Below, piece by piece: positions 3,173 through 60,471 of a DNA stretch of 64,000 bases; positions within the stretch are counted from its first letter, which is position 1, and each line of letters begins with the position of its first letter. Origin of the DNA: a virus; the IMG/VR virus record IMGVR_UViG_3300050343_000270, positions 32,001-96,000 of that record; one strand, 5' to 3'. The notes below the pieces were generated by a model, which saw nothing but the letters and a program-made list of their open reading frames with translations, was not told the DNA's origin and searched no databases. Made by a program: the position numbers and the translations under genes.

Positions 3173-3370
3173 CTAATATGTGTTGCCATGCCAGATGACC
3201 TTTGGTCGTGCGGGCTTTGATCCTTGTAGTGATATGACTTCTAGTTCTAGTCTATCAATGCGGCGCGACTGTTCATCAATCCATTTAGTCATCCCGCATA
3301 TTAAAATCCCAAATAACCCGATACAGCAAAGCGTGGCAACATAATCCCAATCTGTTTTTTTATTTTTCAT
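3173..3370 (-). CDS. Small membrane protein
   Basis: 65 aa, one TM helix, ATGA overlap with the upstream gene. Confidence 0.65.
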   Translation of the reverse strand: MKNKKTDWDYVATLCCIGLFGILICGMTKWIDEQSRRIDRLELEVISLQGSKPARPKVIWHGNTY

Positions 3371-4215
3371 TTTTGTTTATTGTTTTGTGTAAGTTTGCTG
3401 ATGTGGTGTCCGATGTGGTCACCTTTGTGGTCGCCGACTTGGTCGCCTTCGTGGTAGCCGATGTGGTCGCCGTCGTGGCGTCCGATATGGTCGCCCCAGT
3501 GGTAGCCGATGTGGTTGCCCCAGTGGCTACCTTCGTGGTCGCCGTAGTGGAGTCCTTCGTGGTCGCCGTGGTGGTTGCCGATGTGGTCGCCTTCATGGTC
3601 GCCTTTGTGTCTGCCTTTGTGGTCACCATCGTGGCTTCCAATGTGGTCGCCTTCGTGGTAGCCGATATGGTCGCCCCAGTGGTAGCCTTTGTGGTCTCCG
3701 TTGTTGTAGCCGATATGGTCGCCTACGTGGTCGCCGATGTGGTCGCCGTAGTGGAGTCCTTCGTGGTCGCCGTGGTGGTTGCCGTAGTGGTTACCCTCGT
3801 GTTTACCTTCGTGCTTGCCAATGTGGTTTCCGTAGTGGTCGCCCCAGTGGATGCCTTCGTGGATGCCGTAGTGGCTTCCTTTGTGTTTGCCGTAGTGGTC
3901 GCCGTAGTGGCTTCCTTTGTGGTCGCCGTGGTGGTTGCCGTAGTGGCTTCCTTTGTGGTCACCTTTGTGGTCACCTTTGTGGTTGCCTCCGTGGTCGCCG
4001 TCGTGGTCCCAGTGGTTTCCGTAGTGGTTTCCGACATGGTCGCCGTAGTGGCATCCGTAGTGGTCGCCGTAGTGGAGTCCTTCGCGGTTGCCGTAGTGGT
4101 TGCCTATGTGGTTGCCTATCAGGTCAGTTTTCAACTTTGTTAAGACTAGCTTTCCGTCTTCGTCATATCCAAACGACGCAACCTCTGATATTTCTTTTAG
4201 TGTTGGTTCTTTCAT
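3367..4215 (-). CDS. His/Gly-rich tetrapeptide (G-x-H-x) repeat protein
   Basis: 282 aa; about 55-60 G-[DNSKY]-H-[YEIKWH] units from a 12-nt repeat; normal N-terminus and AT-rich leader. Confidence 0.8.
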   Translation of the reverse strand: MKEPTLKEISEVASFGYDEDGKLVLTKLKTDLIGNHIGNHYGNREGLHYGDHYGCHYGDHVGNHYGNHWDHDGDHGGNHKGDHKGDHKGSHYGNHHGDHKGSHYGDHYGKHKGSHYGIHEGIHWGDHYGNHIGKHEGKHEGNHYGNHHGDHEGLHYGDHIGDHVGDHIGYNNGDHKGYHWGDHIGYHEGDHIGSHDGDHKGRHKGDHEGDHIGNHHGDHEGLHYGDHEGSHWGNHIGYHWGDHIGRHDGDHIGYHEGDQVGDHKGDHIGHHISKLTQNNKQK

Positions 4216-4666
4216 TTTATTTTTAGTTGTTTTTAGTTTATTTTAGTTTATTTTAATTTTGCCTATTTTGGCTCTAACACTGCGAAGCTCTTTTTTTAGA
4301 ATGCCTATGATAACCCCCACCGAGGCATCCTCCATTTCTTTAACTAAGTCTTCATTATCGACCCAGACCCTTTTTTCCCCAAGGTAGGCAGGTGTAGTGG
4401 TGTAGAGGTGGATTCCGCGATTCTGAGATTTTTATGATTTGTCTAGATATCGAGTCACGGTAATCTCTTAAATCAATAAGAGATTCTATTTTTTAGTTGC
4501 CTTTTGTTTGCGAAGCTCTTTTGCCTATTTTTTTCATGTCTTCATTATCTTTTTTCCTTCCGCGGTGGACTAGATATCGAGCAAATCTCTATCAGAAAAT
4601 AGCAATCTAGTTTTTAGTATTGGTTAAATTATCGAACAAGCCGAAGCATTTCCTTGGTGGACGTGC

Positions 4667-4695
4667 AAACTATCAGAAAATAGCGTGAATGTCAA
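4667..4695 (-). promoter_or_regulatory. sigma70-like promoter
   Basis: TTGACA-17-TAGTTT on minus strand. Confidence 0.6.
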
Positions 4696-4730
4696 TAATT
4701 ATTTTAATTCTTCTCATCTTGGCGCGATAG

Positions 4731-4952
4731 CTATGGTTTCTTTTGGTATTTCATTGAAGCCTCCCAGCAATCCTCAAGTTCTTTACTGAAACGTTCCTGC
4801 TCCTCCTCCGTAAATGGTTCTGGTCCGTCGTCCATATAACTGTTAGCCAAATCTGCGGCACAATTATCGCAAAGGCATTCATAGCCTGCGCCGAGGACGA
4901 AAGCACCACATCTGCGGCAGGTGTCTGGTTCTGAGATTGTGTCTTCGTTCAT
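4731..4952 (-). CDS. Small Cys-rich (CxxC) hypothetical protein
   Basis: 73 aa, CRRC...CDNC. Confidence 0.65.
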   Translation of the reverse strand: MNEDTISEPDTCRRCGAFVLGAGYECLCDNCAADLANSYMDDGPEPFTEEEQERFSKELEDCWEASMKYQKKP

Positions 4953-5019
4953 GTTGTTTTTAGTTGGGCGGTTGAGCTATACGTTCTGCTTAAAATGAAT
5001 GCGGTAGTATTGGTAATAA

Positions 5020-5190
5020 TCATTTTATATATTTAAGGGATTTTTTAGCGTGGTGCATCATCGCCCCTATCTCTCCATTCCTGCACGCCCTACGCAACTC
5101 GCTCTCGTGGTATTCAATAAAAAACAACCGAACAAGGCATTGTATCCAACGCCATGCATCGTTGGAGGGTTTAATTAAAAGTTTTTTCAT
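5020..5190 (-). CDS. Cassette ORF (56 aa, not in the ORF track) starting inside an attC
   Basis: MKKLLIKPSNDAWRWIQCLVRLFFIEY...; ATG at 5190. Confidence 0.55.
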   Translation of the reverse strand: MKKLLIKPSNDAWRWIQCLVRLFFIEYHESELRRACRNGEIGAMMHHAKKSLKYIK

Positions 5191-5216
5191 GGCGTGGATA
5201 AATTTAGACGTTCTCC
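5127..5216 (+). other. Complete attC-like site (90 bp)
   Basis: ACCGAAC-AAGGC-ATTGTATCCAACGCCATG...CATGGCGTGGATAAAT-TTAGAC-GTTCTCC; two extrahelical bases, 5/6-nt spacers. Confidence 0.85.
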
Positions 5217-5410
5217 GAAGATGAAATAGCGTGTCGCCATGTCACATCGGTCAGACCATGATGGATTATTTCGAGCGGGTAGTCGCCAAGTGTGCCGAGA
5301 TTGGCGCGGAGCACTCCGCCCTTCCAGTAGACCGCGACCCACTCGGGCTTGTAATCGTTTTCCATGCATCGCAAGTAGTAGCCTCCCGTTTTTATGTCTT
5401 TAAGTTCCAT
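5204..5410 (-). CDS. Cassette-borne hypothetical protein
   Basis: 68 aa; stop codon lies in the attC right arm (...SENV*). Confidence 0.7.
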   Translation of the reverse strand: MELKDIKTGGYYLRCMENDYKPEWVAVYWKGGVLRANLGTLGDYPLEIIHHGLTDVTWRHAISSSENV

Positions 5411-5487
5411 GTTGTTGATTATTTTAAGTCATTGATTGTTTTTAGTTGTGCCACCGTTTAGACGGGGCGGCTGTTCTTAGCGTTCGC

Positions 5488-5715
5488 CTAATCATTTCTA
5501 AATGCGCTCCACCGCTCTCCGTCATCTAGGTAGTCGTCCATCTGGCAGGACTTTAAGAACTCTCGGTCAATTACCAAGACATCCTCACGGTCGAGCCATA
5601 GAATGTAGGCGTTGTCTTCCTCTGCGATTCGCTCAAGGCTTTTGCCTTTGTGTTTCCCAAACTCAAGAACAAACTCGGGCGAACAAGGCGTTGAAATCAA
5701 TTTCGTTTCACTCAT
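5488..5715 (-). CDS. Cassette-borne protein with FGKHKGK motif (DUF3820 / exonuclease X C-terminal-like)
   Basis: LEFGKHKGKSLERIAEEDNAYILWL. Confidence 0.7.
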   Translation of the reverse strand: MSETKLISTPCSPEFVLEFGKHKGKSLERIAEEDNAYILWLDREDVLVIDREFLKSCQMDDYLDDGERWSAFRND

Positions 5716-5736
5716 GATTTAACTTGGTCGTTATCC
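5678..5736 (+). other. Complete attC-like site (59 bp)
   Basis: GGCGAAC-AAGGC-GTTGAAATCA...TGATTTAAC-TTGGTC-GTTATCC. Confidence 0.88.
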
Positions 5737-5930
5737 AAGGAATATTTCACAGGTCCAGTCATGTCCCAAACGCTATCGAAGGGGTTGCCATCTGCCTCTT
5801 TCTCCCACCTCTCAAGCGTCTTCTTGGCTTTCGTCTCGCTACTGAATACGTGCGCCCCGTCGAGAGGGTCAAAGAGCACCCATAAGGCTCTGACCGCTTT
5901 TCGTGTTCTTATTTGTGTTTTTACGCTCAT
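5712..5930 (-). CDS. Cassette-borne hypothetical protein
   Basis: 72 aa; ends inside attC with an ATGA overlap to the next gene. Confidence 0.7.
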   Translation of the reverse strand: MSVKTQIRTRKAVRALWVLFDPLDGAHVFSSETKAKKTLERWEKEADGNPFDSVWDMTGPVKYSLDNDQVKS

Positions 5931-5940
5931 AATAAAAAAT

Positions 5941-5999
5941 GGATAACAAGGCGATGCACGGGCAACGGCTACGCCGTGCCGTGATCTTGGTCGTTATCT
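5941..5999 (+). other. Complete attC-like site (59 bp)
   Basis: GGATAAC-AAGGC-GATGCACGGGCAACGGC-TAC-GCCGTGCCGTGATC-TTGGTC-GTTATCT. Confidence 0.9.
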
Positions 6000-6409
6000 C
6001 TATATGCATTTAAGGCTTCAATCACCCACGCCTCGAACTTGTCTTGAGCTTCACACGCTGAATCGTTGCTCATCGCTAGCCCTCCACCTCGCCCCGTCAG
6101 ATATCCCCACGCTCTCACGTCGAGCACGTTGGTATCTCCGCATTTGGTTCTGATGAATATCTTCCCCATGCTCCCGACACCGTAGAATTTACCATCAAAT
6201 TCACTAGGGAGAGAACAAGGCGAAACATCCGACAGCTTGCCGCTTGGTTTGGTTTCTGTGTTATCTTTTCCTGTGCCGTTGCATTTATGGCAGTCGGTTC
6301 TCCCTCCTCCACCAAAACCTTCAAGCTCGCCCAATCCATCGCAAAGGGAACAAGGCGAAGCATCCGACGGCTTGCCGCTTGGTTTGGTTTCTGTTTTATC
6401 TTTTTTCAT
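5969..6409 (-). CDS. Two-module cassette protein (DnaJ-type CxxCxGxG Zn finger plus unknown domain)
   Basis: CSLCDGLG / CHKCNGTG; duplicated leader TETKPSGKxSDxSPCSL. Confidence 0.7.
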   Translation of the reverse strand: MKKDKTETKPSGKPSDASPCSLCDGLGELEGFGGGGRTDCHKCNGTGKDNTETKPSGKLSDVSPCSLPSEFDGKFYGVGSMGKIFIRTKCGDTNVLDVRAWGYLTGRGGGLAMSNDSACEAQDKFEAWVIEALNAYRDNDQDHGTA

Positions 6410-6424
6410 GTCAATAATTTGTGT

Positions 6425-7132
6425 TTAACTTTCGCGGTTATCAACGGCTTCGCCGTGACATCGCTGATTGTTCGCTTCAAAACAATGGTTGAGATAGCCG
6501 ATTGCGAGACAAGCGGCATGTTCAGCCTGTTCCAGTGTGGTCTTGCTGGGGGCTTTCGTCCATATCGCCTCGTTAAGAGCCAATTTTAACTCAACCCAAT
6601 CGGGATCTTCGGAAAGCGAACAAGCCGAAGCATCCGACCCTTCACCGTTAATAGTTGTTTTTTCTTTTTCTTTGTGCATGTCAATAATTTGTTTTAACAT
6701 AGAATCCCTTGGATACCATCGGACTACATAATGCGCATGCACCATTGACCCGTCAGCGTTTCCTACCACCTTCTCGCAAATGCCGCGAAAAACTACGCGA
6801 CCATTAGAAAGCCGCCTCATCCTTCTCTTTCTAATCTTTCCGTCATAGTCCTCTGTCCATATTGGTTCTCCAAAAATAAGGCTAACAAGGCGCTTCATCC
6901 GACCGTTAACCGTTCCTGAGTTGGTTTCGTTTTCTTTTGTGTTCATAAGTTTTCTGGCATCTAAGCAAATATTGCAAATTGACCCGCAACATTCTTGTTT
7001 AACAATCACTTTAACGTGCCGTCCTGTCCCTGCCTCGGTCAACATTTCGTCGTTGATTGACTTGCATACATCACAGCTAACAAGCCGCTGGACATCAATG
7101 CCCACTTCAGCGGGCGTTTCTTGTGTTTTCAT
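6425..7132 (-). CDS. In-frame fusion of three cassette modules (internal starts 6946, 6679)
   Basis: Three attC-arm-derived leaders (VQRLVS, MKRLVS, DASACS) within one ORF. Confidence 0.6.
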   Translation of the reverse strand: MKTQETPAEVGIDVQRLVSCDVCKSINDEMLTEAGTGRHVKVIVKQECCGSICNICLDARKLMNTKENETNSGTVNGRMKRLVSLIFGEPIWTEDYDGKIRKRRMRRLSNGRVVFRGICEKVVGNADGSMVHAHYVVRWYPRDSMLKQIIDMHKEKEKTTINGEGSDASACSLSEDPDWVELKLALNEAIWTKAPSKTTLEQAEHAACLAIGYLNHCFEANNQRCHGEAVDNRES

Positions 7133-7490
7133 GTTGTTTCTGTGTTGTTTCTGTGATTCCAAACGGTTCCATTGAAGTCATAAACCTTTCTAGCAGTTCG
7201 TCGGATCTCCATGCCACTGCGCACAAGTGGTAAACCGCCTCTTCCTTATCGCCTCTCATGTAAGCCTCCTCAAAATCGATGAGGTGTCGGCATATTTGGT
7301 TGCCATCGCCAATGCTGGCATCGACATCCCAAACCATACCCTCGTCCCCAGAATGTTTTAGGTTTGAGTTGTAAGAGTGGATGGATTTGGCGACATGTGC
7401 ATTGGGAAAGTATCTTGTGATATAGTGTAGTACGCGAGCTTTGTTTCTTTCGCTGTCTTCGCGTGGAAGAATTGTATTTTTTGACTGCAT
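7107..7490 (-). CDS. DUF5664-like dATP/dGTP diphosphohydrolase domain protein
   Basis: YFPNA..., W...S....RHL..., HLCAVAWR motif pattern; start reassigned to MQSK. Confidence 0.6.
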   Translation of the reverse strand: MQSKNTILPREDSERNKARVLHYITRYFPNAHVAKSIHSYNSNLKHSGDEGMVWDVDASIGDGNQICRHLIDFEEAYMRGDKEEAVYHLCAVAWRSDELLERFMTSMEPFGITETTQKQHENTRNAR

Positions 7491-7497
7491 GTGATAT

Positions 7498-7526
7498 AAG
7501 ATAGCGCAAATTGATTCAAATGTCAA
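7498..7526 (-). promoter_or_regulatory. sigma70-like promoter reading into the cassette array
   Basis: TTGACA-17-TATCTT on minus strand. Confidence 0.7.
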
Positions 7527-7616
7527 CATGATTTATAAAAAAAAACAACAATAAATTAAAATACAAAAATTTGAATAAAAAATAGATTTTTAGGTGTAAT
7601 TATTTTAACATTTTTT

Positions 7617-7970
7617 ATGAATAAAATTTTCTGTGTATCATGTGGAACTAAAAACGTCTACGAAACAACTAAGCCTAAATTTTGTGCTAATTGTGGGGAG
7701 GCGATTTCTGGAGTATCTCAAGCAACTCAAAAGACTTCAGATGAGGTCGAAGAGGTGTCTGTGAGTAGTATTGATTTAGATGGTCTAAAGAGGGGCATTG
7801 GAGTTCAGTATAACAAATCTGTAACTAAAATTGAAGATGTTTTCGGAAAAGGGGCGGATGGATCTGCTAGCAGACGCGCTCCTAGTAATTTACCAAGTGG
7901 TAAAGACATCATCAAGCACAACATGCAAGATTGTGCGCAAGCCTCAAGATCAAAAGATATTAATGAATAA
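7617..7970 (+). CDS. Zinc-ribbon protein
   Basis: FCVSCG...FCANCG. Confidence 0.75.
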   Translation: MNKIFCVSCGTKNVYETTKPKFCANCGEAISGVSQATQKTSDEVEEVSVSSIDLDGLKRGIGVQYNKSVTKIEDVFGKGADGSASRRAPSNLPSGKDIIKHNMQDCAQASRSKDINE

Positions 7971-8643
7971 TCAATACGAGGATATGCAAGACGAGATTGA
8001 ACGTCTTCTAGCTCGTTATAGATCAAAGTGGCAATTGACCGCTTTGGCATGGCTAGATTATGATGATATCTCACAACTGATTCGCACCCATATTTACAAG
8101 AAATGGCATTTGTGGGACCAAAAGCGACCCTTCGCGCCTTGGTGTGCGCGGCTGATCTATAATCAGATTAGGAATCAAATCAGGAATCATTATGGTAATT
8201 TTGCGAAGCCGTGTCTCAAATGCTCTCACTATATGGGAGGCGAGGAATGTTCGCTTAACAAAAGCGGCAACATTAGCGCGGAATGCAGTTTATACGCCAA
8301 GTGGAAAAAGAAAAAAGAAAAGGCTTACAATCTTAAACTACCTTTATCTTTAGACCCCGCCGTTTCTATTGGAGAGACCTGTATTAAAGAAGGTATAGAC
8401 TATGAGGAGAAAACTGGGACGCTTCATAAACTTATTATTAATAAAATAACCAACGATAAACAAAAAGAGATTTACAAAATGATCTATGTTGATCACTGTT
8501 CTGATCAAGAGGTGGCGGAAAAGTTTGGTTTTAAACAAGATAAGAAAAACAGGAAAACGCCACGATATAAGCAACTAAATAACCTGAAGAAGAAATTCTA
8601 CGAAATCGGGAAGAAAATAATAGAAGAGGAGGATTTGATTTGA
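7963..8643 (+). CDS. Phage RNA polymerase sigma-factor-like protein with Cys-rich insert
   Basis: Region-2-like DYDDISQ...WDQKRPFAPW...NQIRN, C-terminal HTH (SDQEVAEKFG); start at MNNQ. Confidence 0.65.
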   Translation: MNNQYEDMQDEIERLLARYRSKWQLTALAWLDYDDISQLIRTHIYKKWHLWDQKRPFAPWCARLIYNQIRNQIRNHYGNFAKPCLKCSHYMGGEECSLNKSGNISAECSLYAKWKKKKEKAYNLKLPLSLDPAVSIGETCIKEGIDYEEKTGTLHKLIINKITNDKQKEIYKMIYVDHCSDQEVAEKFGFKQDKKNRKTPRYKQLNNLKKKFYEIGKKIIEEEDLI

Positions 8644-9704
8644 ACAAATACAAACTTTCAGACGAAGAAAAGCAACAAGTGATCAGAGAATTTAAAAAAG
8701 ACCCTGATCTTAAGCGCATTACACAAGTTGTTTCTGGTGATCCAGAGGCAGACGGTCGTCATAAGATAGGCAGGGCTATAAGAGCCTTTTTAAGCGAGCA
8801 AAACAAGGAATACAAGACTACAAAGCACGAAGAATGTAATGCAGTCAACCTAACGGAACAACAAAGGGATTTCCTTATGGGCGACCATATCGATTCTGAC
8901 ATGACTCCACTTGATATCGCTCGTATTGTTTTTGAGAATGGAGAAATTAAGAGTTTAAGCCTACATCACCGTGCTGTTATCAACTTTCTTACTCAATATC
9001 GACCAGATATCATCAACGAGAATGAAGTGGTGACTTCTGAAAGGTGGAATCCGCCGACAGCAGTTTCAAGGTCTGTTAAAAAAGTAAACGATTGGGCGGG
9101 TCAGGAAATATCTATAGAAAGCATTAGCAACAAGCATGAAAAGATGATGCGTATGCTTATCAAGTATCTCCACAGCCCCAGATTGAAGCAAACCATAAAT
9201 GAGTATTGCCGCGTTACTGACAGGGAGTTATTTGAGAGTGAATTTGTGCGAGCGACATGGGATAAGCCCGATTTGACCTCCGATGAGCAAAATCAATACA
9301 TAACCCTATGTACCAACTACGTCAGAATTAAGCACATACAGGCGCGACTAGATAAATTGAACAAGATGCTCGATGACATGGGTGACGACGCACAGGGGGC
9401 AACTATACGCTTTACAGAGCTTATTAAGACCACTAGTGAGGAACTCAATCAATGCGAGAAGCGAGTAGAGGCTCTTACGAAGAGTCTGAATGGTAGTCGT
9501 CAAGACAGATTGAAGGCGAAAGGTGAAAGAAGTGGATCTATCGAAGCTTTGGTTGAAGCGTTTCAAGACAAGCAAGATCGTGATCTTATGATCAAGATGG
9601 CTGAAATGAAAAAACGCCTTGTGGCAGATACTGCGGATAAGTTGGAGACAATGAGTGAGTTTAAGGCTCGCGTCCTTGGGATTTCAAAAGAAGAATTGTT
9701 ATGA
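8640..9704 (+). CDS. Hypothetical helical protein, terminase small subunit candidate
   Basis: 354 aa, coiled-coil C-terminus, upstream of TerL. Confidence 0.45.
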   Translation: MNKYKLSDEEKQQVIREFKKDPDLKRITQVVSGDPEADGRHKIGRAIRAFLSEQNKEYKTTKHEECNAVNLTEQQRDFLMGDHIDSDMTPLDIARIVFENGEIKSLSLHHRAVINFLTQYRPDIINENEVVTSERWNPPTAVSRSVKKVNDWAGQEISIESISNKHEKMMRMLIKYLHSPRLKQTINEYCRVTDRELFESEFVRATWDKPDLTSDEQNQYITLCTNYVRIKHIQARLDKLNKMLDDMGDDAQGATIRFTELIKTTSEELNQCEKRVEALTKSLNGSRQDRLKAKGERSGSIEALVEAFQDKQDRDLMIKMAEMKKRLVADTADKLETMSEFKARVLGISKEELL

Positions 9705-10703: not shown

Positions 10704-12602
10704 GTGGCTTGGGATAAAGGAAAACAGCGTTATAGATATGAGTATTCAGCGACGAAAATCAACGAGAAATTGTTGGCTATTGAAGGGGATATGAAAGAAG
10801 AGGAGGCGAAATATCAACTGTATCGTTTTTTACGAAACAATGTTGGTTATACTTGCGAACTCTTTCTTGGGGTTAGATTATTTCCGTTTCAGGAAATGGC
10901 GATAAAATCTATGATGATCGGAGATTACTCGATGTTCGTCTTTTCTCGTGGTTTATCAAAGACTTTCTCAACAGCCATCTATGTTATTTTAGAATGCTTA
11001 TTGAATCCTAGCGCAAATATTGGTGTTATTGCTGGGACATTCCGTCAGTCCAAACAAATATTTTCAAAGATTGAAGATATCATGGCAAAGCCCGAAGCGG
11101 CTATGGCGCGAGAGTCTGGATACAAGCTTTCCAAAGGAACAGATGCATGGACAATGAAGATTGGTAAAAACAAAGCAATTGCTTTACCCTTGGCTAACGG
11201 GGAGAGACTTCGTGGTTTTCGTTTTAATCGTATTGTGCTTGACGAGTTCCTAACCATACCAGAAAAGATTTTCACCGAAGTTATTTTGCCGTTTCTCGGT
11301 GTTGTTGAAAACCCTACGGAAAGGGAAGAGATTTACGATATAGAGAGTATGTTGATTGACTCTGGAGAAATGAAAGAGTCTGACAGGCATGTTTGGTCCA
11401 ATAACAAACTAATCATTCTATCATCGCCAAGTTTCAAGTTCGAATACATGTATAAATTATACTGTAAATACCGAGACCTTATCAGCGGCGTATACGAGAG
11501 TGCCGACGAAGAAGATGACGAGGACGCGGCGGATGATGCTTATCGTATTATTATGCAGTTAAGTTATGACTGTGCGCCGAATACACTTTATGATAAAAAC
11601 CTTTTGAAGCAAGCTAAATCAACAATGAGCGAAATGCAGTTCGAGCGAGAGTTTGGTGGTCAGTTCGTGGATGAGAGTGATGGTTATTTTCGTTTATCTA
11701 AGATGATGAAATGCACTATTCCTGATGGCGAATACCCTGCGGCAGAAGTGGTGGGTAATCCTAAAGATCAATACATACTATCATTTGACCCTAACTGGGC
11801 TGGAAATACAAGCGCCGACCACTTTGCTATGCACGTGTTTAAGCTATTGCCTGACTCCAAGAAGTCTTGCTTAGTCCACAGTTATGCAATCGCGGGAGTT
11901 TCTCTAAAAGACCACATGAGGTATTTTCATTATATATTAACTCATTTTAATATCGTGGGTATCTGCGGTGACTATAACGGAGGGGTTCAGTTTATCGACA
12001 GTTGTAACGAAAGTGAATTATTCAAATCGTCAAATATCAATATTGGAGTAATAGGAATGGATATTGACAAATCAGAAGAATATAATGACAACATGGTCAA
12101 GCTTAAAAATGAATATAATATTAGTGGTAGAAAATATTGTATTCTAAGGAAGCCCACATCTCAGTGGATTCGTTCAGGAAACGAACTACTTCAAGCAAAT
12201 ATTGACCACCAGAAAATTCTATTTGGGGCTAGATCGGTAGATGACCACTTTGACGCTCAAAGAAAAAAGAAACTTCCCATTACTCAGATAAAATGGGACA
12301 TGAATATGTTGGGTAGCAACAATTCTGCTAAGATGATCGACTTCATAGACCACCAAAAAACCATAATCGAACTTACAAAGTCAGAATGTGCAAATATTGA
12401 AGTTAAGAGCAACCCCCAAGGTAGCCAATCTTTCGATTTACCCCAAAATCTTAAGAGAGCAACTGGTCCCAACAGAGCGCGAAAAGACTCCTATTCCGCA
12501 CTAGTTCTAGGAAATTGGTTTATCAAACTATACTACGACATGAATGAAGCAAAAGATAAACCCAAACCTGTTAACGACTTCATTCCAAGAATCATAAAGT
12601 AA
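10704..12602 (+). CDS. terL: Terminase large subunit
   Basis: Walker A-like SRGLSKT, LRGFRFNRIVLDE Walker B, FEREF, RNaseH-like SFDP and KDSYSAL. Confidence 0.9.
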   Translation: MAWDKGKQRYRYEYSATKINEKLLAIEGDMKEEEAKYQLYRFLRNNVGYTCELFLGVRLFPFQEMAIKSMMIGDYSMFVFSRGLSKTFSTAIYVILECLLNPSANIGVIAGTFRQSKQIFSKIEDIMAKPEAAMARESGYKLSKGTDAWTMKIGKNKAIALPLANGERLRGFRFNRIVLDEFLTIPEKIFTEVILPFLGVVENPTEREEIYDIESMLIDSGEMKESDRHVWSNNKLIILSSPSFKFEYMYKLYCKYRDLISGVYESADEEDDEDAADDAYRIIMQLSYDCAPNTLYDKNLLKQAKSTMSEMQFEREFGGQFVDESDGYFRLSKMMKCTIPDGEYPAAEVVGNPKDQYILSFDPNWAGNTSADHFAMHVFKLLPDSKKSCLVHSYAIAGVSLKDHMRYFHYILTHFNIVGICGDYNGGVQFIDSCNESELFKSSNINIGVIGMDIDKSEEYNDNMVKLKNEYNISGRKYCILRKPTSQWIRSGNELLQANIDHQKILFGARSVDDHFDAQRKKKLPITQIKWDMNMLGSNNSAKMIDFIDHQKTIIELTKSECANIEVKSNPQGSQSFDLPQNLKRATGPNRARKDSYSALVLGNWFIKLYYDMNEAKDKPKPVNDFIPRIIK

Positions 12603-27820: not shown

Positions 27821-30800
27821 ATGGCGGCACCAATCAATATACCTGCGAACATTTCGATAAGCACCACTAGCCTGAATAGATCTACTCGTCAGGTTCAGCA
27901 AGCGTTGGGGCGTATTACAGGTCAAGCATCAGAATTTCAAAAATCTCTTGATGCTTCAACTGCGCGTGTGTTTGCTTTCGGAGCTACCACGGCGGTTCTG
28001 CAAGCTGTTAACCAATCATTCAAAAAGCTTATCAGCACCACGGTTGAGGTTGAGAAAAAGCTAATCGAGATAAACTCTATCTTTCAAGCTACAAACGCTC
28101 AGTTTAGCAAGTTTAGAGATTCTATCTTCCAAGTCGCCAAAGATACTGGGCAGTCTTTTAATACCGTTGCAGAAGGTGCGGCGGAATTAGCTCGTCAGGG
28201 TTTAAGTGCAGAAGAGACCGCGAAACGGTTAAAAGCCGCATTAATACTCACTCGTATTTCAGGTATGGACGCAGAGAAGTCTGTAAAGTCTCTGACCGCC
28301 GCAATGAACGGTTTCACCTCTGCTGGATTAAGTGCCGAGCAGATTGTTAATAAAATTGTAGCGGTTGATACGGCATTCGCTGTATCTGCACAAGACTTGG
28401 CTGACGGTTTTTCTCGCGCTGGATCTACGGCAGAGGATGCTGGTGTATCATTTGATCAGCTACTAGGTCTTATAACCGCTGTAGAGCAGAGAACTGCGCG
28501 AGGTGGTGCTGTGATCGGTAACGCATTTAAATCTATATTTACACGACTAGCCCGTGGAACAACCATTGAAAAACTAAAAGAACTTGGTGTTGAGATTGAC
28601 TCTAGCCAAACAGGTATTCAAAAACTACAATCTTTATCAGCGGCTCTTGAAAAGATATCAGACCCAACTATAGCAAGTCAGATAAAAGAGCTTGCGGGTG
28701 GCGTGTTCCAGATTAACGTTGTTAGTTCTACATTGAAGGATTTATCAAGCGAGACTTCTATTTTTGCCAGTGCCGCGAAAGAAGCCTCTAATGCAACTAA
28801 CGAGGCTTTTCAAAAGAACGAGCTATTAAATACTAGTTTGGCGGCGCAAATAAATAGTCTGGTGGCTGGGATAACAAATTTAGCAGAAAAAATTGGAGGC
28901 ATAACAATCGCGCCACTGCTTGGTAATTTAGTAAAGATAGCAACAGTGCTTTCAGACTCTTTAGATGGCGCTCTTGACCCAGAAAAAGGTAATGCTTTCA
29001 TCAAGGGTCTTTTAGCCACTATTAGTTCTTTTATATCTGGTCCAGGGTTGATTATGGTGACTGTGGCGTTTTTAAAGATCACCAAGCTGGTGGCTAAATT
29101 TGCCATGGATGGTTTTAAGTCTGTTATGGCAATTGGTTCAGCCCAAGAAAAGAATAAGCAAATTGAGGCTGGTATAGTTAGATTGTTACAACACGACGTT
29201 CAGTTAAGAAAACAGTTAGCTAACCAAAGTTTATCACAGGCTCAAAAAGAACAAGCTGTTCTGGATGCTATAAAAAGAGAAAATGCCTTACTAAGAGATC
29301 AAGAGAGGCTAATGCGAAATCTTACATCTCTTGCGAGGCAGAGGGGTGTTACTGGACATAGTTCATCTAGAGGATTTAAGGGAAGGGGTTTTTCGGCAGG
29401 TCACATGCAAGAGGAGGCGAACGCCAGAATGTTGGGCGCTACATCTTCTGTTAGGGCGCACAGGGGGCAGGGAACCATTGGTGGTAAATCATTCATAATG
29501 AATAACCAAGAAACCGAAATACCAAATTTTGGTCGAAATGGTGATTCTGCGGTCATACCTCATTACGCAAAAGGTTTTGTTCCAAATTTTGCAATGATTA
29601 GCACTAGCGCGTATTTCAACAAAAAAGGCGCAAGTTTACGGGGGTATACAGATGGAATAAAAAATGGGACTATAAGAAGGACCGAGGTTGGAAAAGATCG
29701 GGTGGTGGGTGACGTGAAGTTCAGTAAAGACGAGATTAACGCCGCTGGAAAATTAGGGATAGATGAAAAGGGAAAACAAGCAGATAGCAAAAAGAAACAA
29801 ACTATTGATGCATCAAGAGTCATTGGGAAAAACACAATGCCTACGGTTTTGACCCCTTCAAATTCAGGCGGGACGCGATCAATAACAACGAGAAAAGACT
29901 TTAACCACCCTGTAAAATTTCAATTTAAAAGTTTTAAAGTTGATAAAAATGGAAAGCTTGGTTTGCGAAAGGATTTTGACAGAAAATTTTCTGACACAAA
30001 AATAAAAGAAATGGCGGAAAATACTGCTTTAAAATTTGCCAAAAAAGCGGCAGAGGCAGTTTCAGAAAAGCCAGTTGATCCAAAAACTATTGAAGAGGTT
30101 GACAATGTGAACGGATTCATCAGCGGAATAAAAGGAGGTTTTGGTGGAATATTTGATGCGGCTTTAACCACTGCGCTGAGAACAAATGTCGGTGACGGTG
30201 TTGGTGGAGATTTTGACGTTAATACTGCGGACAACGCCAAGGCAAAATCAAACGTAAGAAAAATATTTGGAAGTAGATCACTGCCTCTTAGTGGGCTTGC
30301 TGACTACAAGATAAATGATGGTAATTACACGTTAGAAAGTATGATTACAAAATTCATGGGAACTAAAATTTTAACAGACCCAATCAAAGCAACAATTAAC
30401 AAACAGAAGGTAGATAGAAAAGGTTTAAATAGAGTTAGTAAAGGCAGGGGAAGGGCTGGAGGATTTATACCCAACTATAGCCAAACAGACCGAGGAGTTC
30501 CTATGTCTAAAATTCGCGCCCACTTTGATGGCGCAGGAAACCCTGTTGCTGTTACAAATACAATGGACGAACCTAACGGCTTAAGTGACGTAAGGAAGAA
30601 TGGATTGGCTGATGCAATAGGCAGAGAGAGGCAAGGAATTGGAATGCATAGTGAGGGTTTTGTTCCTAATTTTAGGCTTGGGGGTCTTGTTAAGCTTGGG
30701 GGAGCGGCTGGAAGGAAGATCGGGGCGGGGGCTTCAAGGTTATTCGGGGGGGCTAAAAATAAAGGTAAAAATGTATTGGACTCCCACAAAGCCTCTAAAG

Positions 30801-32609
30801 CTAACATAAAAAGTCTCAAAGAGAACACCAAAAAGTTAAAGAAAGAAAATCAAGAAATTCAGAAAAGGATAAGCGCTGGCAAATTAAGCAAAGAGCAACT
30901 CAAAATACATGAAAAAAAGCTGAAAAAAAACAATTCTAAAATATCTGACAACGCTAGTCAGATGCAAAATGATAGTGGTGCTGGTATGCTGGCGATGTTT
31001 GCTTTATCTGGGGTAGACACAGGCTTTCAGGCTCTGGCGGACAGCAGGAGAGAGAAGGGGGACGAAAAAGGAGGCATGCTCGCGGATCAGGGATCGGCTG
31101 CCGCACAGTTTGCGTCTATGGGTGCAATGTTTGGACCCATGGGGATGGCGATTGGGGCTGTAACTGGTCAAGTTTATAGTCTTGGATCTGCGCTTCTTGA
31201 CGCTAACAAAAGAATAAATGAAGGCGAAAAAAAGGGGGAAAAGACCTAGATAGGGGTAAAGAGGCTCAAGCTAAAGGCATTCAGAGACAAAGAAGTGCCA
31301 TGAGGAATCTTGGCTTCAGTAAAGGCAACGAAGTAATGGAAGTCGCTCAAAAAGTTGCAAGTGTGGGTCTGCGCGACTACACAGATGAAATAAAAAAAGT
31401 AAAGGATCGTTTGCGTTCAGCCTCTGAGAGTCCTGCGGAATACAAAAAAGCAACCGATGACTATATTAAAGTTATGGAAAAGGTAGCTATAGCCGAGACA
31501 AAGGTTGCCGAAATAAAAAGAATACAAGCAAGTCTGACAAAAAAACAAAATGATTTAATTAAACTAAATGCAGAACAAGCTCAAGCAAGCCAAGCAAGAG
31601 TAAAATCCGCACAAAAGGCTGTTGATACATTAGGGTTTATGAGTGAAATCAGAACACCTGAATTAACTGGCGAGAGAAGAAATGCGGTTGATAGATCTTT
31701 GAAGGGTCAGTCGGCTGTTGCTGGAGCGCAATTAAATAAACAAACATTAAATGACTTAAAAGTAGAGTTAAGTCAAACAACAGATAAAGATAAAAGAGAA
31801 GAAATAGTAGAGAAAATCGAACAAGCCACGACAGTCTTCAACAAATCGGTTGTTTCTGCGGCAATAAGTCTAAGGAACAATTTAAACCAAGCTGAATTTG
31901 ATCTTGGAAAGCTGAAAGAGACTCTAACTACACAAAAAGAGCAAACATTCGACAGTAGGCTTGGCTTTGTAATTCTTTAAAAGACAAAACAATAGACGCC
32001 GATGTTGTTAGAGATAACGTAAAAAGGCTTAGGGAAGCTGGGGACGACCCTAAAAAACAATTAGAGGCGATGGAACGACTGGCTGGCAACAAAGAACAAC
32101 TTGACGCGATTAACCCAGCAATCTTCAAAGGTATTTTAGACTCTATGGGTCTGACACCCAAAGAGCAAGAAGAATTAACTAGGAAAACAGACGAGGCAGG
32201 TTTGAGGGGTGCTGGGATCACTGATCAGAAAACTATTGATGCAATAATAGAGAGACTAAAAAAGGATAGACCTGACATCAAAAATACACAGCAGGAAATA
32301 AAAGTTCTTGAAGAATCAATAAAAGAGTCTAAAAAGCAAATAGAGAAGTTCGGGAAAGCGTTTAACGCCGAGAAGATTAGCGAAAGCACTAAGAACATAT
32401 CCGAAGCCCTAGAAAAATTTGGTAAAGGCATGGGGGACGGCACAAAAATATTAGAAGCAATAAACAAGGTAAATACAAAAGCGGCTACTGAAATAGCCAA
32501 ATCAAATACTCTTGTTAAAGAAGCCGCTAAAGATATAGAGAAAACCAAGAAAGATATAGTTTCTCTCAAGGCGGGGGTAGCACAGGTAAAAGCACAGCTA
32601 GAACCATAA
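27821..32609 (+). CDS. Tail tape measure protein (TP901-type), ~1600 aa, two apparent frameshifts (~31235, ~31970)
   Basis: AAELARQG, SAQDLADGFSRAGS, IGNAFKSIFTRL; ORFs 27821-31249, 31300-31980 and 32070-32609 join by single-base shifts. Confidence 0.85.
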
Positions 32610-42777: not shown

Positions 42778-44507
42778 TGCTTATTATAATTTTCAGAGTG
42801 AATATCGAACATTATTTTATCGGCATCTCCTTGGTGCAGATAATCCAACATCCGTTGAGTTCCGATGTGAGGCAAGAAACATAAGTGGAAGTATCCTTTG
42901 TGGTTACTCGCGCCTTCCATCATCGGTAAGTTTTCCATGGCAGTATGGAAATTTAAAACTTTGTATATGTATGGATTGCCTTTGAGTATCGGTTGGAACT
43001 GTTCTTGGGTAGCGAAGTAAATGTCTTTGTTGGGATATGTTTTTTTCAGAGAAGGTAATAGTGATGTTGCTATGAATACATCGCCAGCAGATTCTGGCAT
43101 AACAAACAAAATGCGGTCATCAATTTCTCCATCTAACATGTCGGACAATTCTGGTGGGGCAAGGCTATTATCTTGCTCTTGTTCGACTTTAATTTTTTCA
43201 GCTTTGTAAACCTCCCTGAATGTTGTCTTTAACTTCTCTACTGTAACATCAACGGAAAAGCGGTCATCCAGACATTTTCTGCCGTTTTTCAAAAAGTGTT
43301 TTTTCATTTCATCATCCATTCTGAAAACTTTATGTAAATTGGAAGATATACTAGAAGGTCTTGTTGTCGCTTTAATGAAGTTCGTATGAGGTTCACGATA
43401 TTCATCCCAATCTAATGGCATTCCGCCATCTTCTTGAGAACATGAATCAAGACCACAAGAATAAGATGTGGCAAGAGTGATTAAGCCAGCCGATTTAGCT
43501 TCTTGAATGGGAAGCTCTTGACCGCCGCTGGTAAATGGATGGCAATAAACATCCATAATGTTGTAGATTTGGTTGAGTTGGTTCTCATTTACTCCCTTGC
43601 CACTGTTTTTTGTTTTGACGCTTTTCGTTGAACCGCAAACACCGCAATTTTTATCTTCACCAGAATACGGAGCTAGAAAAAACTGACCGCATTTGTGGCA
43701 CAGGTAGGTAGCTAAGACATCTTTAGGGTTGATCTTTTTTTCGACGATGTATTTTTCAATATCCCAACCAGCATCTTTTTCTGCCCAATCGGTGTGTAGT
43801 AAAAGTTTCGTTTTTAATTCGGGGTGACTTTCTTGAAAAAGCCTAAATCCTTCAAGGATGTTTGGGACAGATTTTCTAAGTTGATTTTTGAATACAAAAC
43901 CAATGACGTAGTCTTCACTTAGATTGTGTTTTTCTCTTAGTGCGTTTCGCTCGATAGCAGGAAGGGGATAATAATCTTTGTAATCTATAGCCCCGTGAAT
44001 AGTTTCCACACCTTCGTAGCCATTCTCCTCCATTGCTTTTTGAGCAAACGTAGCCCACACCAACATCTTGTCACATACGCCGTGCATGTGATATGCTTGA
44101 TCAAGTATAGGTAAACTATCTAAAGTTGTCCACAGAATGGTTTTAACATCTTTCCACCATTTCTTTTTTTCAAATTGAGAGAAAGCCCATATATCTTCAA
44201 TACCAAGATAGATATCGGGATTTTCTTCTTCAACAATTTTGTCAATCATGTAGTAGCCATAAGAAGCGGCGCGTTCTTTGGCTGGGTCTCCTTTTATTTT
44301 TTGTAAGACATCTGCCGTGGGGTGAGTTCCATAACTCTTCCAAGGAGTCATAAGGTCATTACCAAACCCAACCCCATTAGCCGCCTCAATAACCTCAAAC
44401 TCATCGCTGTCATGGAGAGCGAGAAGAATGTTTTTCATATTCTTCCCAAACCCCGTGACAAGACGAGAGTAATTTGAATGAACTAATACTTTGATTTTTT
44501 TAGACAT
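42765..44507 (-). CDS. GT4 glycosyltransferase with Zn ribbon and GT9-like C-terminal domain
   Basis: NQLRK, GGQELPIQEAKSAG, CHKC/CGVC, AGDVFIATSLLPSLKKTYP. Confidence 0.8.
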   Translation of the reverse strand: MSKKIKVLVHSNYSRLVTGFGKNMKNILLALHDSDEFEVIEAANGVGFGNDLMTPWKSYGTHPTADVLQKIKGDPAKERAASYGYYMIDKIVEEENPDIYLGIEDIWAFSQFEKKKWWKDVKTILWTTLDSLPILDQAYHMHGVCDKMLVWATFAQKAMEENGYEGVETIHGAIDYKDYYPLPAIERNALREKHNLSEDYVIGFVFKNQLRKSVPNILEGFRLFQESHPELKTKLLLHTDWAEKDAGWDIEKYIVEKKINPKDVLATYLCHKCGQFFLAPYSGEDKNCGVCGSTKSVKTKNSGKGVNENQLNQIYNIMDVYCHPFTSGGQELPIQEAKSAGLITLATSYSCGLDSCSQEDGGMPLDWDEYREPHTNFIKATTRPSSISSNLHKVFRMDDEMKKHFLKNGRKCLDDRFSVDVTVEKLKTTFREVYKAEKIKVEQEQDNSLAPPELSDMLDGEIDDRILFVMPESAGDVFIATSLLPSLKKTYPNKDIYFATQEQFQPILKGNPYIYKVLNFHTAMENLPMMEGASNHKGYFHLCFLPHIGTQRMLDYLHQGDADKIMFDIHSENYNKQCTS

Positions 44508-45076
44508 TAGAAAGGAGGATCGTTGTTATCCTCTTCTGGTGCATTTGTATTTGTTCTCTTAGCGGGTGCTGATGCTTTTTTAGCCCTCTCCCTTACATCT
44601 TGTTCACTAGTATCAATTAGAGAGTCGGCAATAAATTTCTTTAGAAGGACATTGAGGACTTGAGATTCACCAGAACTAATTGGCAACCTGAATACATCAC
44701 TACCGTTCCGCTTAACACTCAAAGACCATGCTGGAGTTTTATAATTTACGTCTCCGTTTTTTTCTTTGACATTGCGATTCTGCTCCCAAGGAACAAATCG
44801 GATGATTGTTGAGTCGTCCTTGAATTTGTGAAAAGCGACAAACGGAATGCGTGATTTGATCGAAGAGACCATTTCGCCAGCTTCCGCCACACTTAATTTG
44901 AAATTAATATCTTTACCTCCACTAAAAGACCCTGTTTTCTTAGCATTATCCCAGCCTTTTTGCTGGATCATTGAGATAAAAAGGTTGCTGACAGAGTCGT
45001 CTCCGATTTTAGCAATATCAACAGTTGCGGCGCAACCAGTGTTTTTAGGGTTTGGTTTATAAATACGATATTTCAT
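44507..45076 (-). CDS. Hypothetical protein, possible PC4/whirly-like ssDNA-binding protein
   Basis: FKLSVAEAG motif; acidic C-terminal DPPF. Confidence 0.4.
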   Translation of the reverse strand: MKYRIYKPNPKNTGCAATVDIAKIGDDSVSNLFISMIQQKGWDNAKKTGSFSGGKDINFKLSVAEAGEMVSSIKSRIPFVAFHKFKDDSTIIRFVPWEQNRNVKEKNGDVNYKTPAWSLSVKRNGSDVFRLPISSGESQVLNVLLKKFIADSLIDTSEQDVRERAKKASAPAKRTNTNAPEEDNNDPPF

Positions 45077-45112
45077 GATTTACGTGTAATTTGTTAAGTA
45101 ACCTATTGTATC

Positions 45113-46063
45113 ATGAACTTCAATAAAATTCAACCTCAACAGTTGCAAATGCCCACTTTTTTTAGTAATAGTGGTGATTTGGCGTTTACAGACCTAACTA
45201 CTGGTTTCAAAGTTGAGTTGAGCCGATTCTTAACTGGCGATTTTGACATTAGCGGCGACTTAACAATTAATTTTAGAAGAATACCTCAAATGTCACCAAG
45301 CATTGTGTTCGATAGAGATAGAGGTATGCTTATTGGTGGAACAAACTCAACTATAAGTGGAGAAGGCAACTTTGTAGTTAATGGAGACGGCAACTTGATT
45401 GGAGGAGAAGATAATACAATATTATTTTCGAAGGACTCTTATTTTCAACCCGCTTCTTCAGGTAACGTTTTGATTGGTGGCAATACTGTCACGTTTCCAA
45501 GTGGTGTCACAGGAAGCATGATGTTGGGAGACAACAATGCAAACAGGGAAATAGAGGCAAGTAATACTCTTTATGTTGAGTTTGACAGCGGTCAAAGATT
45601 TATTAATGGTACAGTTTTTGAGGATAATATTGATGTAAGTGGAAGTTCAATATTTAACGGAACCGCAGATTTTGAAAATAATTTTACTGTTAACGCACCC
45701 GCAGATTTTAACGATGATTTTACTGTTAGTGGAGACACGACAATAATCGGTGATATAAACGGATCAGGTAATTTTGATGTTACTGGATCAACTTTTGATT
45801 TTACTGGATCAGCAATGAGGTATAATGGCGAACAAGTGGCTTTATTAGGATACGTTAATGACGCTATTGATTCAGCTAAAAACTATTTGGAAAACCTAAT
45901 AGACGATCTGGAAGTCCGAGTAGACGATCTGGAAGTCCGAGTAGGAGATTTAGAATCACAAACTGGTTCGTATGTTCAAACGGGTAATTTTGTTATTGGT
46001 TCAGATACTGTTGATATTACTATCGATGGAACAACTATAACAAGTTCAGGAGTGGTTTCTTAA
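45113..46063 (+). CDS. Putative fibre / structural protein (beta-helix plus coiled coil)
   Basis: Gly/Asn repeats, DDLEVRV heptad repeats; opposite strand to neighbours, own GTGTAA motif. Confidence 0.55.
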   Translation: MNFNKIQPQQLQMPTFFSNSGDLAFTDLTTGFKVELSRFLTGDFDISGDLTINFRRIPQMSPSIVFDRDRGMLIGGTNSTISGEGNFVVNGDGNLIGGEDNTILFSKDSYFQPASSGNVLIGGNTVTFPSGVTGSMMLGDNNANREIEASNTLYVEFDSGQRFINGTVFEDNIDVSGSSIFNGTADFENNFTVNAPADFNDDFTVSGDTTIIGDINGSGNFDVTGSTFDFTGSAMRYNGEQVALLGYVNDAIDSAKNYLENLIDDLEVRVDDLEVRVGDLESQTGSYVQTGNFVIGSDTVDITIDGTTITSSGVVS

Positions 46064-46446
46064 TCTAAATCAACGCTAATGCCGTTGCGTTCAATTCTCT
46101 TGGGTTTGTCTGCCAAGTGTTTTTTACCAATATTTTTTTCGTAATTATCAAAGAATTTGCGCTTCACGGGATCTTCTGTGCCTGTTTTTTCTGATCTCTG
46201 TGCTGACATTTCTTCTGCAAGACCCATCATGTCTCCGACCGTGCCTTTCATATTTCCAGTCTTATCGATAAAGTCTCGTTTGTTAAATGGATCTAGGCTT
46301 GCTAGAGATTGAATCGAAGCGTTGGGTTTTGTGAAAATACGCTTCCAGTCTACGCCGTCTTCTTGATATACGTGTTCTTCATTCATTGTTTGAATGATTT
46401 CTTTAACCTCTTCGGTTTCTGGGTTTTGATATAGGTAGATAGGCAT
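46060..46446 (-). CDS. FmdB-like small regulatory protein
   Basis: MPIYLY N-terminus, WKRIFTKP. Confidence 0.55.
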   Translation of the reverse strand: MPIYLYQNPETEEVKEIIQTMNEEHVYQEDGVDWKRIFTKPNASIQSLASLDPFNKRDFIDKTGNMKGTVGDMMGLAEEMSAQRSEKTGTEDPVKRKFFDNYEKNIGKKHLADKPKRIERNGISVDLD

Positions 46447-46447
46447 A

Positions 46448-48119: not shown

Positions 48120-48418
48120 ATACGTATACTATTATGTGCAATATAGTAAAAAAGTCAAGATGAAAAAAAAGTGAAGTTTTTGTAGATTTTTTGGACGAGG
48201 TTTTTATAATAAGTATCTAAGCGAGACGCTGAAGTTAAAGTCAGGTTAAAGAATTGTGTTTTAATTATTCACTACGTTCATATATAAAACACTGTAAGAC
48301 ACTATATTTATTTCTTTATAAGAAGAAAACTTCGGTGCAAAAATTATATCTACTATTAGGCGAGATTTACCTTGCTTTTTTCTTCGACACGGGTTACATT
48401 CGTGTAAACATAAACACA

Positions 48419-51060: not shown

Positions 51061-51257
51061 TTAATTAAGTGCAAAGTAATTATCTTACTTAAAAATTAGA
51101 CAATCATCACATTCTATGCTAATATAGTGTGTGATGATTTTTTTTACGTCAGGTATCATTGCGAGCTTCTTTCTGGAGACACCTTAAAGCACTTAACAGA
51201 TTCTACAACGCCATTTTCTTTTTACGATCCACAAAAAATTTACGCACAACATATAGG

Positions 51258-54332: not shown

Positions 54333-54385
54333 AGTAAACAAACCCCTCTTAACAGAGAACAGGTTTTTAAATTTGCAAAAACATG

Positions 54386-54414
54386 TTGACAAATTTTTCA
54401 ATTTGGCACATAAT
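54386..54414 (+). promoter_or_regulatory. sigma70-like promoter of replication block
   Basis: TTGACA-17-CATAAT. Confidence 0.75.
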
Positions 54415-54422
54415 ACTTATGT

Positions 54423-60434: not shown

Positions 60435-60471
60435 CTTTACATTGTGCTAATTTTATAATTAGTTTTCTGTC

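Follow-up and report, generated by a model that had tools for sequence, protein, structure and literature searches.

The window analysed here, the whole 64-kb stretch of DNA, is a portion of the genome of a large uncultured marine tailed phage and carries, at positions 4631-7132, an array of sites of the kind that integron integrases (IntI) recombine, the attC sites. It encodes a terminase (10704-12602), a tape-measure-type protein (27821-31249), a ribonucleotide reductase, a DnaB-like helicase, a RecA-like protein and the alpha subunit of Pol III. Between positions 1 and 7529 every plausible gene is small and on the minus strand, and a plus-strand block diverges from 7617; the array is located within this leftward, early-type gene block. 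Its sites belong to the attC family of a chromosomal integron in Oceaniferula spumae NT6N (Verrucomicrobiota), the lineage called host below, as predicted from that family.

The sites are listed in the structural terms of PMC4889954, with boxes R'' and L'' on the left and L' and R' on the right, and with the extra base of L'' in brackets.

4631-4648, plus strand: truncated left half-site with R'' ATCGAAC, spacer AAGCC and the start of L'' (GAAGCAT), found by motif match and by comparison with the full version in contig L082; its leader portion is deleted.
4967-4989, plus strand: right half-site of host type, with L' CGGTTGAGC, spacer TATAC and R' GTTCTGC.
5127-5216, plus strand: complete 90-nt attC, with R'' ACCGAAC, spacer AAGGC, L'' ATT[G]TATCC, loop, L' GGATAAAT, spacer TTAGAC and R' GTTCTCC.
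5430-5488, plus strand: right half-site ending in R' GTTCGCC (5482-5488), similar to the right ends of host attC sites of the GAAGCATCC variant.
5678-5736, plus strand: complete 59-nt attC, with GGCGAAC, AAGGC, GTT[G]AAATC, loop, GATTTAAC, TTGGTC and GTTATCC.
5941-5999, plus strand: complete 59-nt attC, with GGATAAC, AAGGC, GAT[G]CACGG, loop, CCGTGATC, TTGGTC and GTTATCT.
6210-6270, plus strand: left half-site, R'' AGAGAAC (AGATAAC in sister contigs) and a host-like left arm, which is in frame and has no start codon.
6342-6476, plus strand: long composite site with a host-like left arm, ATG/TTGACA, a hairpin ACGGC-TTC-GCCGT and R' GTTCGCT; L'' and L' are unpaired.
6615-6699, plus strand: left half-site, R'' AGCGAAC (the complement of GTTCGCT at 6470), left arm and an ATG at 6682-6680.
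6880-6946, plus strand: left half-site, the closest match to host attC (GCTTCATCCGACCGTTAACCGT...), with an ATG at 6946.
7075-7132, plus strand: left half-site of another attC type, R'' AGCTAAC, AAGCC, GCTGGACATC..., with an ATG at 7132; a complete 100-nt site in contig L096 has a homologous left part.

The motif scans, the layout scan and the covariance model described below all took in the whole window. The left-arm word AACAAGSC occurs nine times on the plus strand within 4635-7079 and six more times in the remaining ~61 kb, both strands combined, while the stricter 10-mer RAACAAGSCG gives 6 matches where 0.46 are expected. Read on the coding (minus) strand, AACAAGSC occupies two reading frames and has one copy outside coding sequence. 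The repeat is therefore a DNA-level element, and its interpretation as a protein motif (SPCS or ACS) was rejected. A scan for the full attC layout (AAC, a 5-nt spacer, a 9-nt L'' of three base pairs, one extra base and five base pairs, a loop, an 8-nt L', a 6-nt spacer and GTT) returned with zero mismatches 5127-5216 (90 nt), 5678-5736 (59 nt) and 5941-5999 (59 nt), and elsewhere in the window a single perfect match. In 0.92 Mb of other loci there were four perfect matches, two of them A/T-rich chance occurrences and two members of the same element family. The right half-site adds a further count: positions 4967-4985 agree with the right-end consensus of host attC at 18 of 19 positions, where no match is expected by chance.

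The preliminary description of this DNA had named the same three complete sites. It had also placed additional left arms near 4631, 6210, 6345, 6615, 6880 and 7075 and right arms ending at 4989, 5488 and 6476; all six of the former are present, each on the plus strand, as are all three of the latter, the first of them being the one that fits the host consensus.

The complete sites have the build of attC. Imperfect inverted repeats R''-L'' and L'-R', whose R'' contains AAC and whose R' contains GTT, are found in the window and in the sister contigs. The window sites also show the attC-like fold with unpaired spacer, extrahelical base and terminal loop. In all three complete sites the extra base is a G, and the L boxes differ in sequence while their complementarity is kept. 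Loops measure 17-48 nt, and the site lengths of 59, 59 and 90 nt, with their 5-nt and 6-nt spacers, lie within the roughly 57-141 nt that is usual for attC. Both 59-nt sites fold into an R stem, an internal loop, a bulged L stem and a terminal hairpin. For 5941-5999 the fold has z = -2.4 on the plus and -3.4 on the minus strand; a fourth site of perfect layout, in contig L081, has perfectly paired R boxes and z = -4.0.

A second signature lies at the cassette boundaries. Each cassette body is flanked by GTTnnnn on its left and by the complementary nnnnAAC on its right, so that R'' complements the 7-mer that opens its own cassette. This had been claimed for the window on the strength of three exact pairs, GTTCGCC(5482)/GGCGAAC(5678), GTTATCC(5730)/GGATAAC(5941) and GTTCGCT(6470)/AGCGAAC(6615), and of a fourth, GTTATCT(5993)/AGAGAAC(6210), that agrees at 6/7 positions. 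All four are there, and the last becomes 7/7 (AGATAAC) in three sister contigs. The rule extends well beyond the window. In a set made up of the window and 51 contigs retrieved with the left-arm 20-mer, an exact partner (GTT plus the reverse-complemented 4-mer) lies at most 900 nt upstream of 41 of the 88 non-redundant R'' boxes; with permuted 4-mers the mean is 7.0 and the maximum 15. The O. spumae array obeys the same rule. Two other readings of the 7-mers, as a long-range RNA stem and as transposon inverted repeats, were rejected since neither accounts for the homology to host attC sites.

That homology emerged when the left-arm 20-mer was scanned against one genome per prokaryote species, which yielded six sites in the chromosome of O. 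spumae NT6N (NZ_AP026866.1). This chromosome encodes an integron integrase at 2796309-2797250 on the minus strand (TIGR02249, 394.5 bits against a cut-off of 265). To its right, on the plus strand between 2799108 and 2879056, follow ~98 repeats of ~118 nt that start with nnnnAAC-AAGGC-GCTTCATCCGAC and end with GGCGGTTGAGCTCTAC-GTTnnnn, each R'' complementing the preceding R'. It is a classical sedentary chromosomal integron. Its attC sites fall into several subfamilies whose L boxes covary, and the median distance from an R' to the next R'' is ~480 bp; two further NT6N attC clusters, at ~452-474 kb and 352-356 kb, have no intI. Comparison of window positions 4300-7700 with NT6N by blastn gave 113 matches, mostly to the 6880 arm and with identities of up to 98-100% over 30-46 nt; the arm at 6880-6946 is up to 98% identical to dozens of O. 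spumae attC sites. The motif itself is rare, being carried by only 2 of 201 genomes sampled from the same order (113 copies in NT6N, 19 in one other). Four metagenome contigs (L123, L125, L130 and L137) contain bacterial-type arrays with the same 20-mer left arm, cassettes of 420-660 nt and mostly forward open reading frames (ORFs); to judge from their sequences, they are probably environmental relatives of Oceaniferula.

Because the window sites fall in this attC family, the O. spumae lineage and its close kin are the predicted host of the phage. Positions 4400-7600 have no blastn match among 50,697 phage records, the terminase is only ~25% identical to those of Bacillus and Clostridium phages, and neither comparison points to a cultured relative or a host. 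A Bacteroidota host, considered on account of A/T-rich sequence upstream of starts, was dropped after the TTGACA/AAGGA elements described below and the Verrucomicrobiota attC match came to light. The nearest virus record is a 16-kb fragment that does not include the array region.

Ninety-four attC sites from the O. spumae integron served to build a covariance model, distinct from that of IntegronFinder. The underlying alignment contains compensatory L-box changes, with, for example, 16 and 43 sequences changed on both sides at two pairs. Applied to the window, the model places its six best matches within 5127-6955, all on the plus strand. The strongest are at 6880 (E 6.5e-6) and at 5127-5216 (E 2.1e-5), the latter a full-length match with compensated L-box pairs, followed by 6210 (0.0025), 6345 (0.012) and 6615 (0.09). 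The two 59-nt sites score weakly (5678-5736, E 0.34; 5941-5999, E 2.3). Sister contigs contain full-length matches down to E 3.7e-15, and seven more distant phage relatives have none. A covariance-model check, which the preliminary description had suggested, thus favours it: the window gives matches only within the stretch it had singled out.

No gene for the recombinase has been found beside the sites. Pfam detects no tyrosine recombinase among 30 large ORFs of the window, and when all window frames were compared by phmmer and hmmsearch with five tyrosine recombinases of O. spumae, IntI among them, used one by one and combined into a profile, the best E value was 0.077. The claim that the array lacks an integrase therefore holds for the 64-kb window, which is part of a longer genome. 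Nor did a tyrosine recombinase turn up in five related phage records, among which is a complete genome of 146.9 kb. With three complete and nine half-sites and no such enzyme in the window, the array corresponds to a CALIN, a cluster of attC sites lacking integron integrase (PMC4889954). It is not a complete integron, as there is no intI in the window and the genes are read against the attC top strand. One might suppose that site-specific recombination is the work of an enzyme other than host IntI, either encoded by the phage outside the 64 kb or hidden among the many window ORFs without family match, all the more as only part of the genome is at hand and as the R boxes and extra base depart from the class-1 pattern. 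The same departures occur, however, in the host integron beside a true intI, and the related phage records offer no candidate either. We regard this possibility as quite improbable.

Comparison with related contigs indicates that the cassettes move. The block 5482-5733, consisting of ORF 5488-5715 and the 59-nt attC, is 99.6% identical in L084 and L131, where it stands in a different context: nothing is shared before GTTCGCC on the left or after GTTA on the right. The only other gene that L131 shares with the window encodes a His-rich repeat protein, ~56% identical at the protein level. The right arm 5429-5486 recurs with 100% identity in L101 within a complete 118-nt attC, another body being joined directly after GTTCG. 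L122 has the core of site 5941-5999 (5945-5995) at 94% identity, between different R boxes: its R'' reads TGCGAAC and its R' reads GTTCGGT. The left arm 6615-6699 is 100% identical in L081 and L136, attached to another body. In L119, L099 and L118 the backbone 6619-9000 is shared at 98.8-99.7% identity, and the array to its left is differently ordered. Finally, L136 is 99.6% identical to the window over 4649-6233 and lacks a 405-bp stretch of two units, 6214-6618; in the blastn table the indel starts at 6234, after a 20-mer shared with two mismatches.

These contigs also bear on the suspicion that the array is an artefact, either because assembly wrongly fused part of a bacterial integron to a phage contig or because the resemblance arose by chance. 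The window does come from an uncultured assembly. Yet the array is linked to one and the same phage backbone in four contigs independently (L119, L099, L118 and L136), and it is therefore no assembly chimera; moreover, the phage cassettes are unlike bacterial ones in size and ORF strand. Chance is excluded by the motif, layout-scan, right-arm and permutation counts. An artefact is refuted for practical purposes and has, in our estimate, a barely perceptible probability.

The contents of the cassettes and the signals embedded in them are as follows.

4649-4706, minus strand: promoter-like element with TTGACA (4695-4690), 17 nt, TAGTTT (4672-4667) and then AAGGA, 86-90% identical in at least 10 sister contigs.
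4731-4952, minus strand: 73-aa ORF with CxxC...CxxC motifs and no family match, 100% identical in L136.
5204-5410, minus strand: 68-aa ORF of the cassette that follows the 5127-5216 site, without family match.
5483-5732, plus strand: self-contained cassette that opens with TTCGCC, closes with the G of the next GTT and carries ORF 5488-5715.
5488-5715, minus strand: 75-aa ORF with an ExoX-like_C domain (Pfam PF20600), whose ATG lies inside the attC loop.
5712-5930, minus strand: 72-aa ORF of cassette 5731-5999, its last 7 codons supplied by the neighbouring attC.
5969-6409, minus strand: 146-aa composite ORF made of a leader, a CxxCxGxG zinc-finger unit, a second leader without ATG and the body of cassette 5994-6216.
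6425-7162, minus strand: 245-aa open frame of three leader-plus-body units in frame, with no stop codons between them.

Homologues of the 72-aa product, 78-84% identical, occur at other positions in L119, L099 and L117, and in L136, L081 and L099 another leader precedes the body of cassette 5994-6216. The region of the 245-aa frame is 98.8-99.7% identical at the DNA level in L119, L099 and L118. Both 6425-7162 and 5969-6409 are in-frame chains of leaders and bodies with internal ATGs; from their sequences, they may encode fusion proteins or several proteins started internally. Apart from the ExoX-like_C domain and weak zinc-finger matches the cassette proteins show no family match, and homologues of the 75-aa protein are found in four metagenomic clusters only.

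All plausible ORFs of the array are on the minus strand. In the O. spumae array the top strand of attC is fixed, intI being divergent and 89 of 96 cassettes carrying their longest ORF on that strand; hence, by homology, the plus strand of the window is the top strand. The earlier statement that all genes are inverted is borne out when orientation is set in this way. Indeed, the longest ORF points in the reverse direction in nearly all of about 30 different phage-type cassettes (92-358 nt). These cassettes, of about 90-360 bp, are delimited between G and TT (G/TT). Their ORF usually starts in a leader of ~20 residues that is encoded within the attC left arm, for instance M-K-x-E-x-T-E-T-K-P-S-G-K-L-S-D-A-S-A-C-S, and continues through R'' into the body. 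Long phage sites have a conserved coding-strand block, TTGACA, 17 nt and TAGTTT, followed by AAGGA and ATG. Its resemblance to a promoter suggests that it may act as one; a simple consensus promoter scan did not score the embedded block as a promoter.

Such a combination of signals recalls the promoter-plus-stem-loop repeats (PeSLs) of T4-type phages, whose part in modular shuffling is documented (PMC2839356, PMC4122927). The elements could accordingly be regulatory cassettes of this sort, shuffled by homologous recombination, their likeness to attC being a relic of an old integron capture with no integrase at work today. The conserved promoter-like block, the GC hairpin and the start codon with its leader speak for this proposal, as does the fact that most copies in the window are half-sites or chimeras unable to fold as attC. 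Moreover, the 405-bp indel of L136 and three leader swaps map to the 20-nt left-arm core, as expected of homology-driven exchange. However, it does not account for the cassette-specific 4-nt complementarity across about 30 phage cassettes, for the exact GTT junctions with unrelated sequence on one side, for covarying L boxes that retain the extra base, or for the homology to host attC; many sister contigs, besides, hold complete and well-scoring attC sites. Set against what defines PeSLs, the array shows conserved hairpins and a promoter-like block that the consensus scan leaves unscored, and R' breakpoints that lack the flanking homology on which PeSL shuffling depends. We consider this explanation unlikely.

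It appears, then, that 4631-7132 is a CALIN whose sites belong to the attC family of the O. spumae sedentary integron, a reading to which we assign a probability of about 0.78; recombination by the host IntI would be its most likely mechanism. Several observations weigh against this reading. The first concerns the boxes. The class-1 consensus RYYYAAC/GTTRRRY is not followed by the phage, whose R' boxes are GTTCGCC, GTTATCC, GTTATCT, GTTCGCT, GTTCTGC and GTTCTCC. Since the O. spumae integron likewise uses GTTCGAC, GTTCGGC and GTTCGCC, the strict class-1 rule fails for this integron lineage as well. Similarly, the extra L-box base on the top strand is G in the phage and T or G in the host, whereas the textbook attC has its extra G on the bottom strand. 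The second concerns integrity: six of the nine left arms in the window have no pairing right arm, and most of the long window sites, being half-sites or chimeras, fail to fold as attC. Folding, which had been proposed earlier as a check, thus supports the 59-nt sites and not the long site 6342-6476 (z = -0.8 on the plus and -0.3 on the minus strand) or the left arms that lack a partner, whose folds are no better than those of shuffled sequences. This site and the unpaired left arms look either like fusions of a host-type left half with a hairpin and right half of the short kind seen in the phage or like products of deletion.

The third point concerns the junctions. Relatives had been expected to differ exactly at G/TT, and at R' they do, with no flanking homology. 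At the left arm they do not: swaps between identical bodies (L082/L122, L097/L103, and the window versus L136/L081/L099) fall inside the shared 20-nt core. Such exchanges could be due to ordinary homologous recombination or to top-strand crossover at AA/C, and the former explains them equally well. Lastly, tblastn and blastn found no homologue of the phage cassette proteins in the O. spumae integron and CALIN regions examined, and beyond the attC sites no DNA similarity was seen between phage and NT6N, in a comparison of window positions 44001-64000 with NT6N and the second motif-bearing genome.

Under the preferred reading, host IntI would fold and recombine the phage sites (attC x attC) during infection. 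It would thereby excise, insert and exchange cassettes among co-infecting phages, possibly also with the host array, and such exchange would diversify the early genes of the phage. Comparative sequence points to IntI as the most likely acting enzyme; what is said here of the strand that recombines, of the use of the embedded promoter and leader and of gene function should be taken as suggestion in the same way.

A more elaborate version, to which we would give somewhat less than even odds, holds that the phage lineage keeps an all-inverted cassette pool of its own, in a form for which bacteria offer no described example. The attC would supply a promoter-like block, a ribosome-binding site, a start codon and a leader of ~20 residues that is read through R'' in either of two frames, so that early transcription would immediately express any body that arrives at the R boxes. 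Host IntI would do the shuffling, possibly with crossovers at both R' and R'' and hence on both strands. If true, this pool would be the phage-side counterpart of the defence cassettes in bacterial chromosomal integrons.

Several other features of the region may be recorded. A 270-aa protein encoded at 7831-8643 on the plus strand weakly matches an RNA polymerase sigma factor family (phrog_1740, E 7.4e-5) and is conserved, to 62% identity apart from one near-identical fragment, in 80 marine viral contigs, most of them without attC arrays. Relatives retrieved through this protein (80, at up to 62% identity, including in addition one 99% fragment that lacks the array region) contain neither the motif nor attC sites, and are therefore uninformative on cassette gain or loss. 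At 3367-4215 on the minus strand lies the gene for a 282-aa protein that consists almost entirely of G-x-H-x repeats and has no Pfam match; its homologues in L136, L131, L119 and L099 vary in repeat number. Five copies of CTGTTAGR are spaced at 14 nt within 2445-2547, those on the minus strand (2445, 2459, 2473) facing those on the plus strand (2526, 2540), and 8 of the 10 window copies fall within the first 2.6 kb. They resemble an iteron or operator array and are distinct from the attC sites, though GTTAGR recalls an R' box. Left of the array, 4400-4630 is non-coding and free of tRNA; words like CTAGATATCGAG recur in it, and it has another promoter-like block.

As a class, CALINs in phages are known from the literature. 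Qi et al. (2023, Front Microbiol, PMC9892861) described 17 of them, virulent phages included, and showed that IntI1 recombined five of six tested phage attC sites into attI1. Like the present array, theirs are attC clusters without intI in phages without integrase. Here, by contrast, the attC family has its counterpart in the integron of one particular candidate host lineage; the array crowds at least nine sites into 2.5 kb, and its cassettes are very short; the ORFs all run on the bottom strand, often with their start within attC; and sister contigs reveal turnover at GTT, the present array being known from its sequence. What is new is thus the host-lineage match, the evidence in phage genomes for crossover at G/TT, the inverted, attC-initiated format and the separate phage cassette pool. 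Integron components of phages have so far been mainly attC clusters predicted by software, few of them tested with IntI1, and comparative sequence now shows cassettes moving at the crossover point. The family match in turn provides a host prediction for an uncultured phage together with a testable pair, phage attC and Oceaniferula IntI. Bacterial chromosomal integrons are reported to store anti-phage defence cassettes (bioRxiv 10.1101/2024.07.02.601686), and it is therefore worth asking whether the phage cassettes hold counter-defence or takeover genes.

The likeness to the PeSLs of T4-type phages lies in promoter-plus-stem-loop repeats placed between small novel ORFs of a hyperplastic early region, and in repeats that mark the breakpoints of gene gain, loss and replacement (PMC2839356, PMC4122927). 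The present phage is, unlike the PeSL phages, not T4-type. PeSLs reportedly recombine by homology; they are said to be unrelated to any recombination site of the host and to show neither the R/L box geometry nor inverted 7-mers specific to each cassette.

Inversion of cassettes has its precedents. In Vibrio chromosomal integrons some cassettes, such as those for toxin-antitoxin pairs, are inverted and bring their own promoter, their ORF running opposite to the attC top strand. In bacterial arrays they form a minority (7 of 96 in O. spumae); in the phage they are universal, with start codon and leader inside attC, a format of interest for the choice of strand and for how cassettes arise and are expressed. 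The O. spumae integron and the phage array agree in their left ends, AAC-AAGGC-G(CTT/AAG)CATCCGAC..., in their right ends, ...GGCGGTTGAGCT(C/A)TAC-GTT, and in the R''/R' cassette rule. The former has intI, ~98 uniform sites of ~118 nt at ~480 bp spacing and 89/96 forward ORFs, whereas the latter has no intI, mixes sites of 59-190 nt with half-sites, encodes reverse ORFs and has no cassette bodies in common with it.

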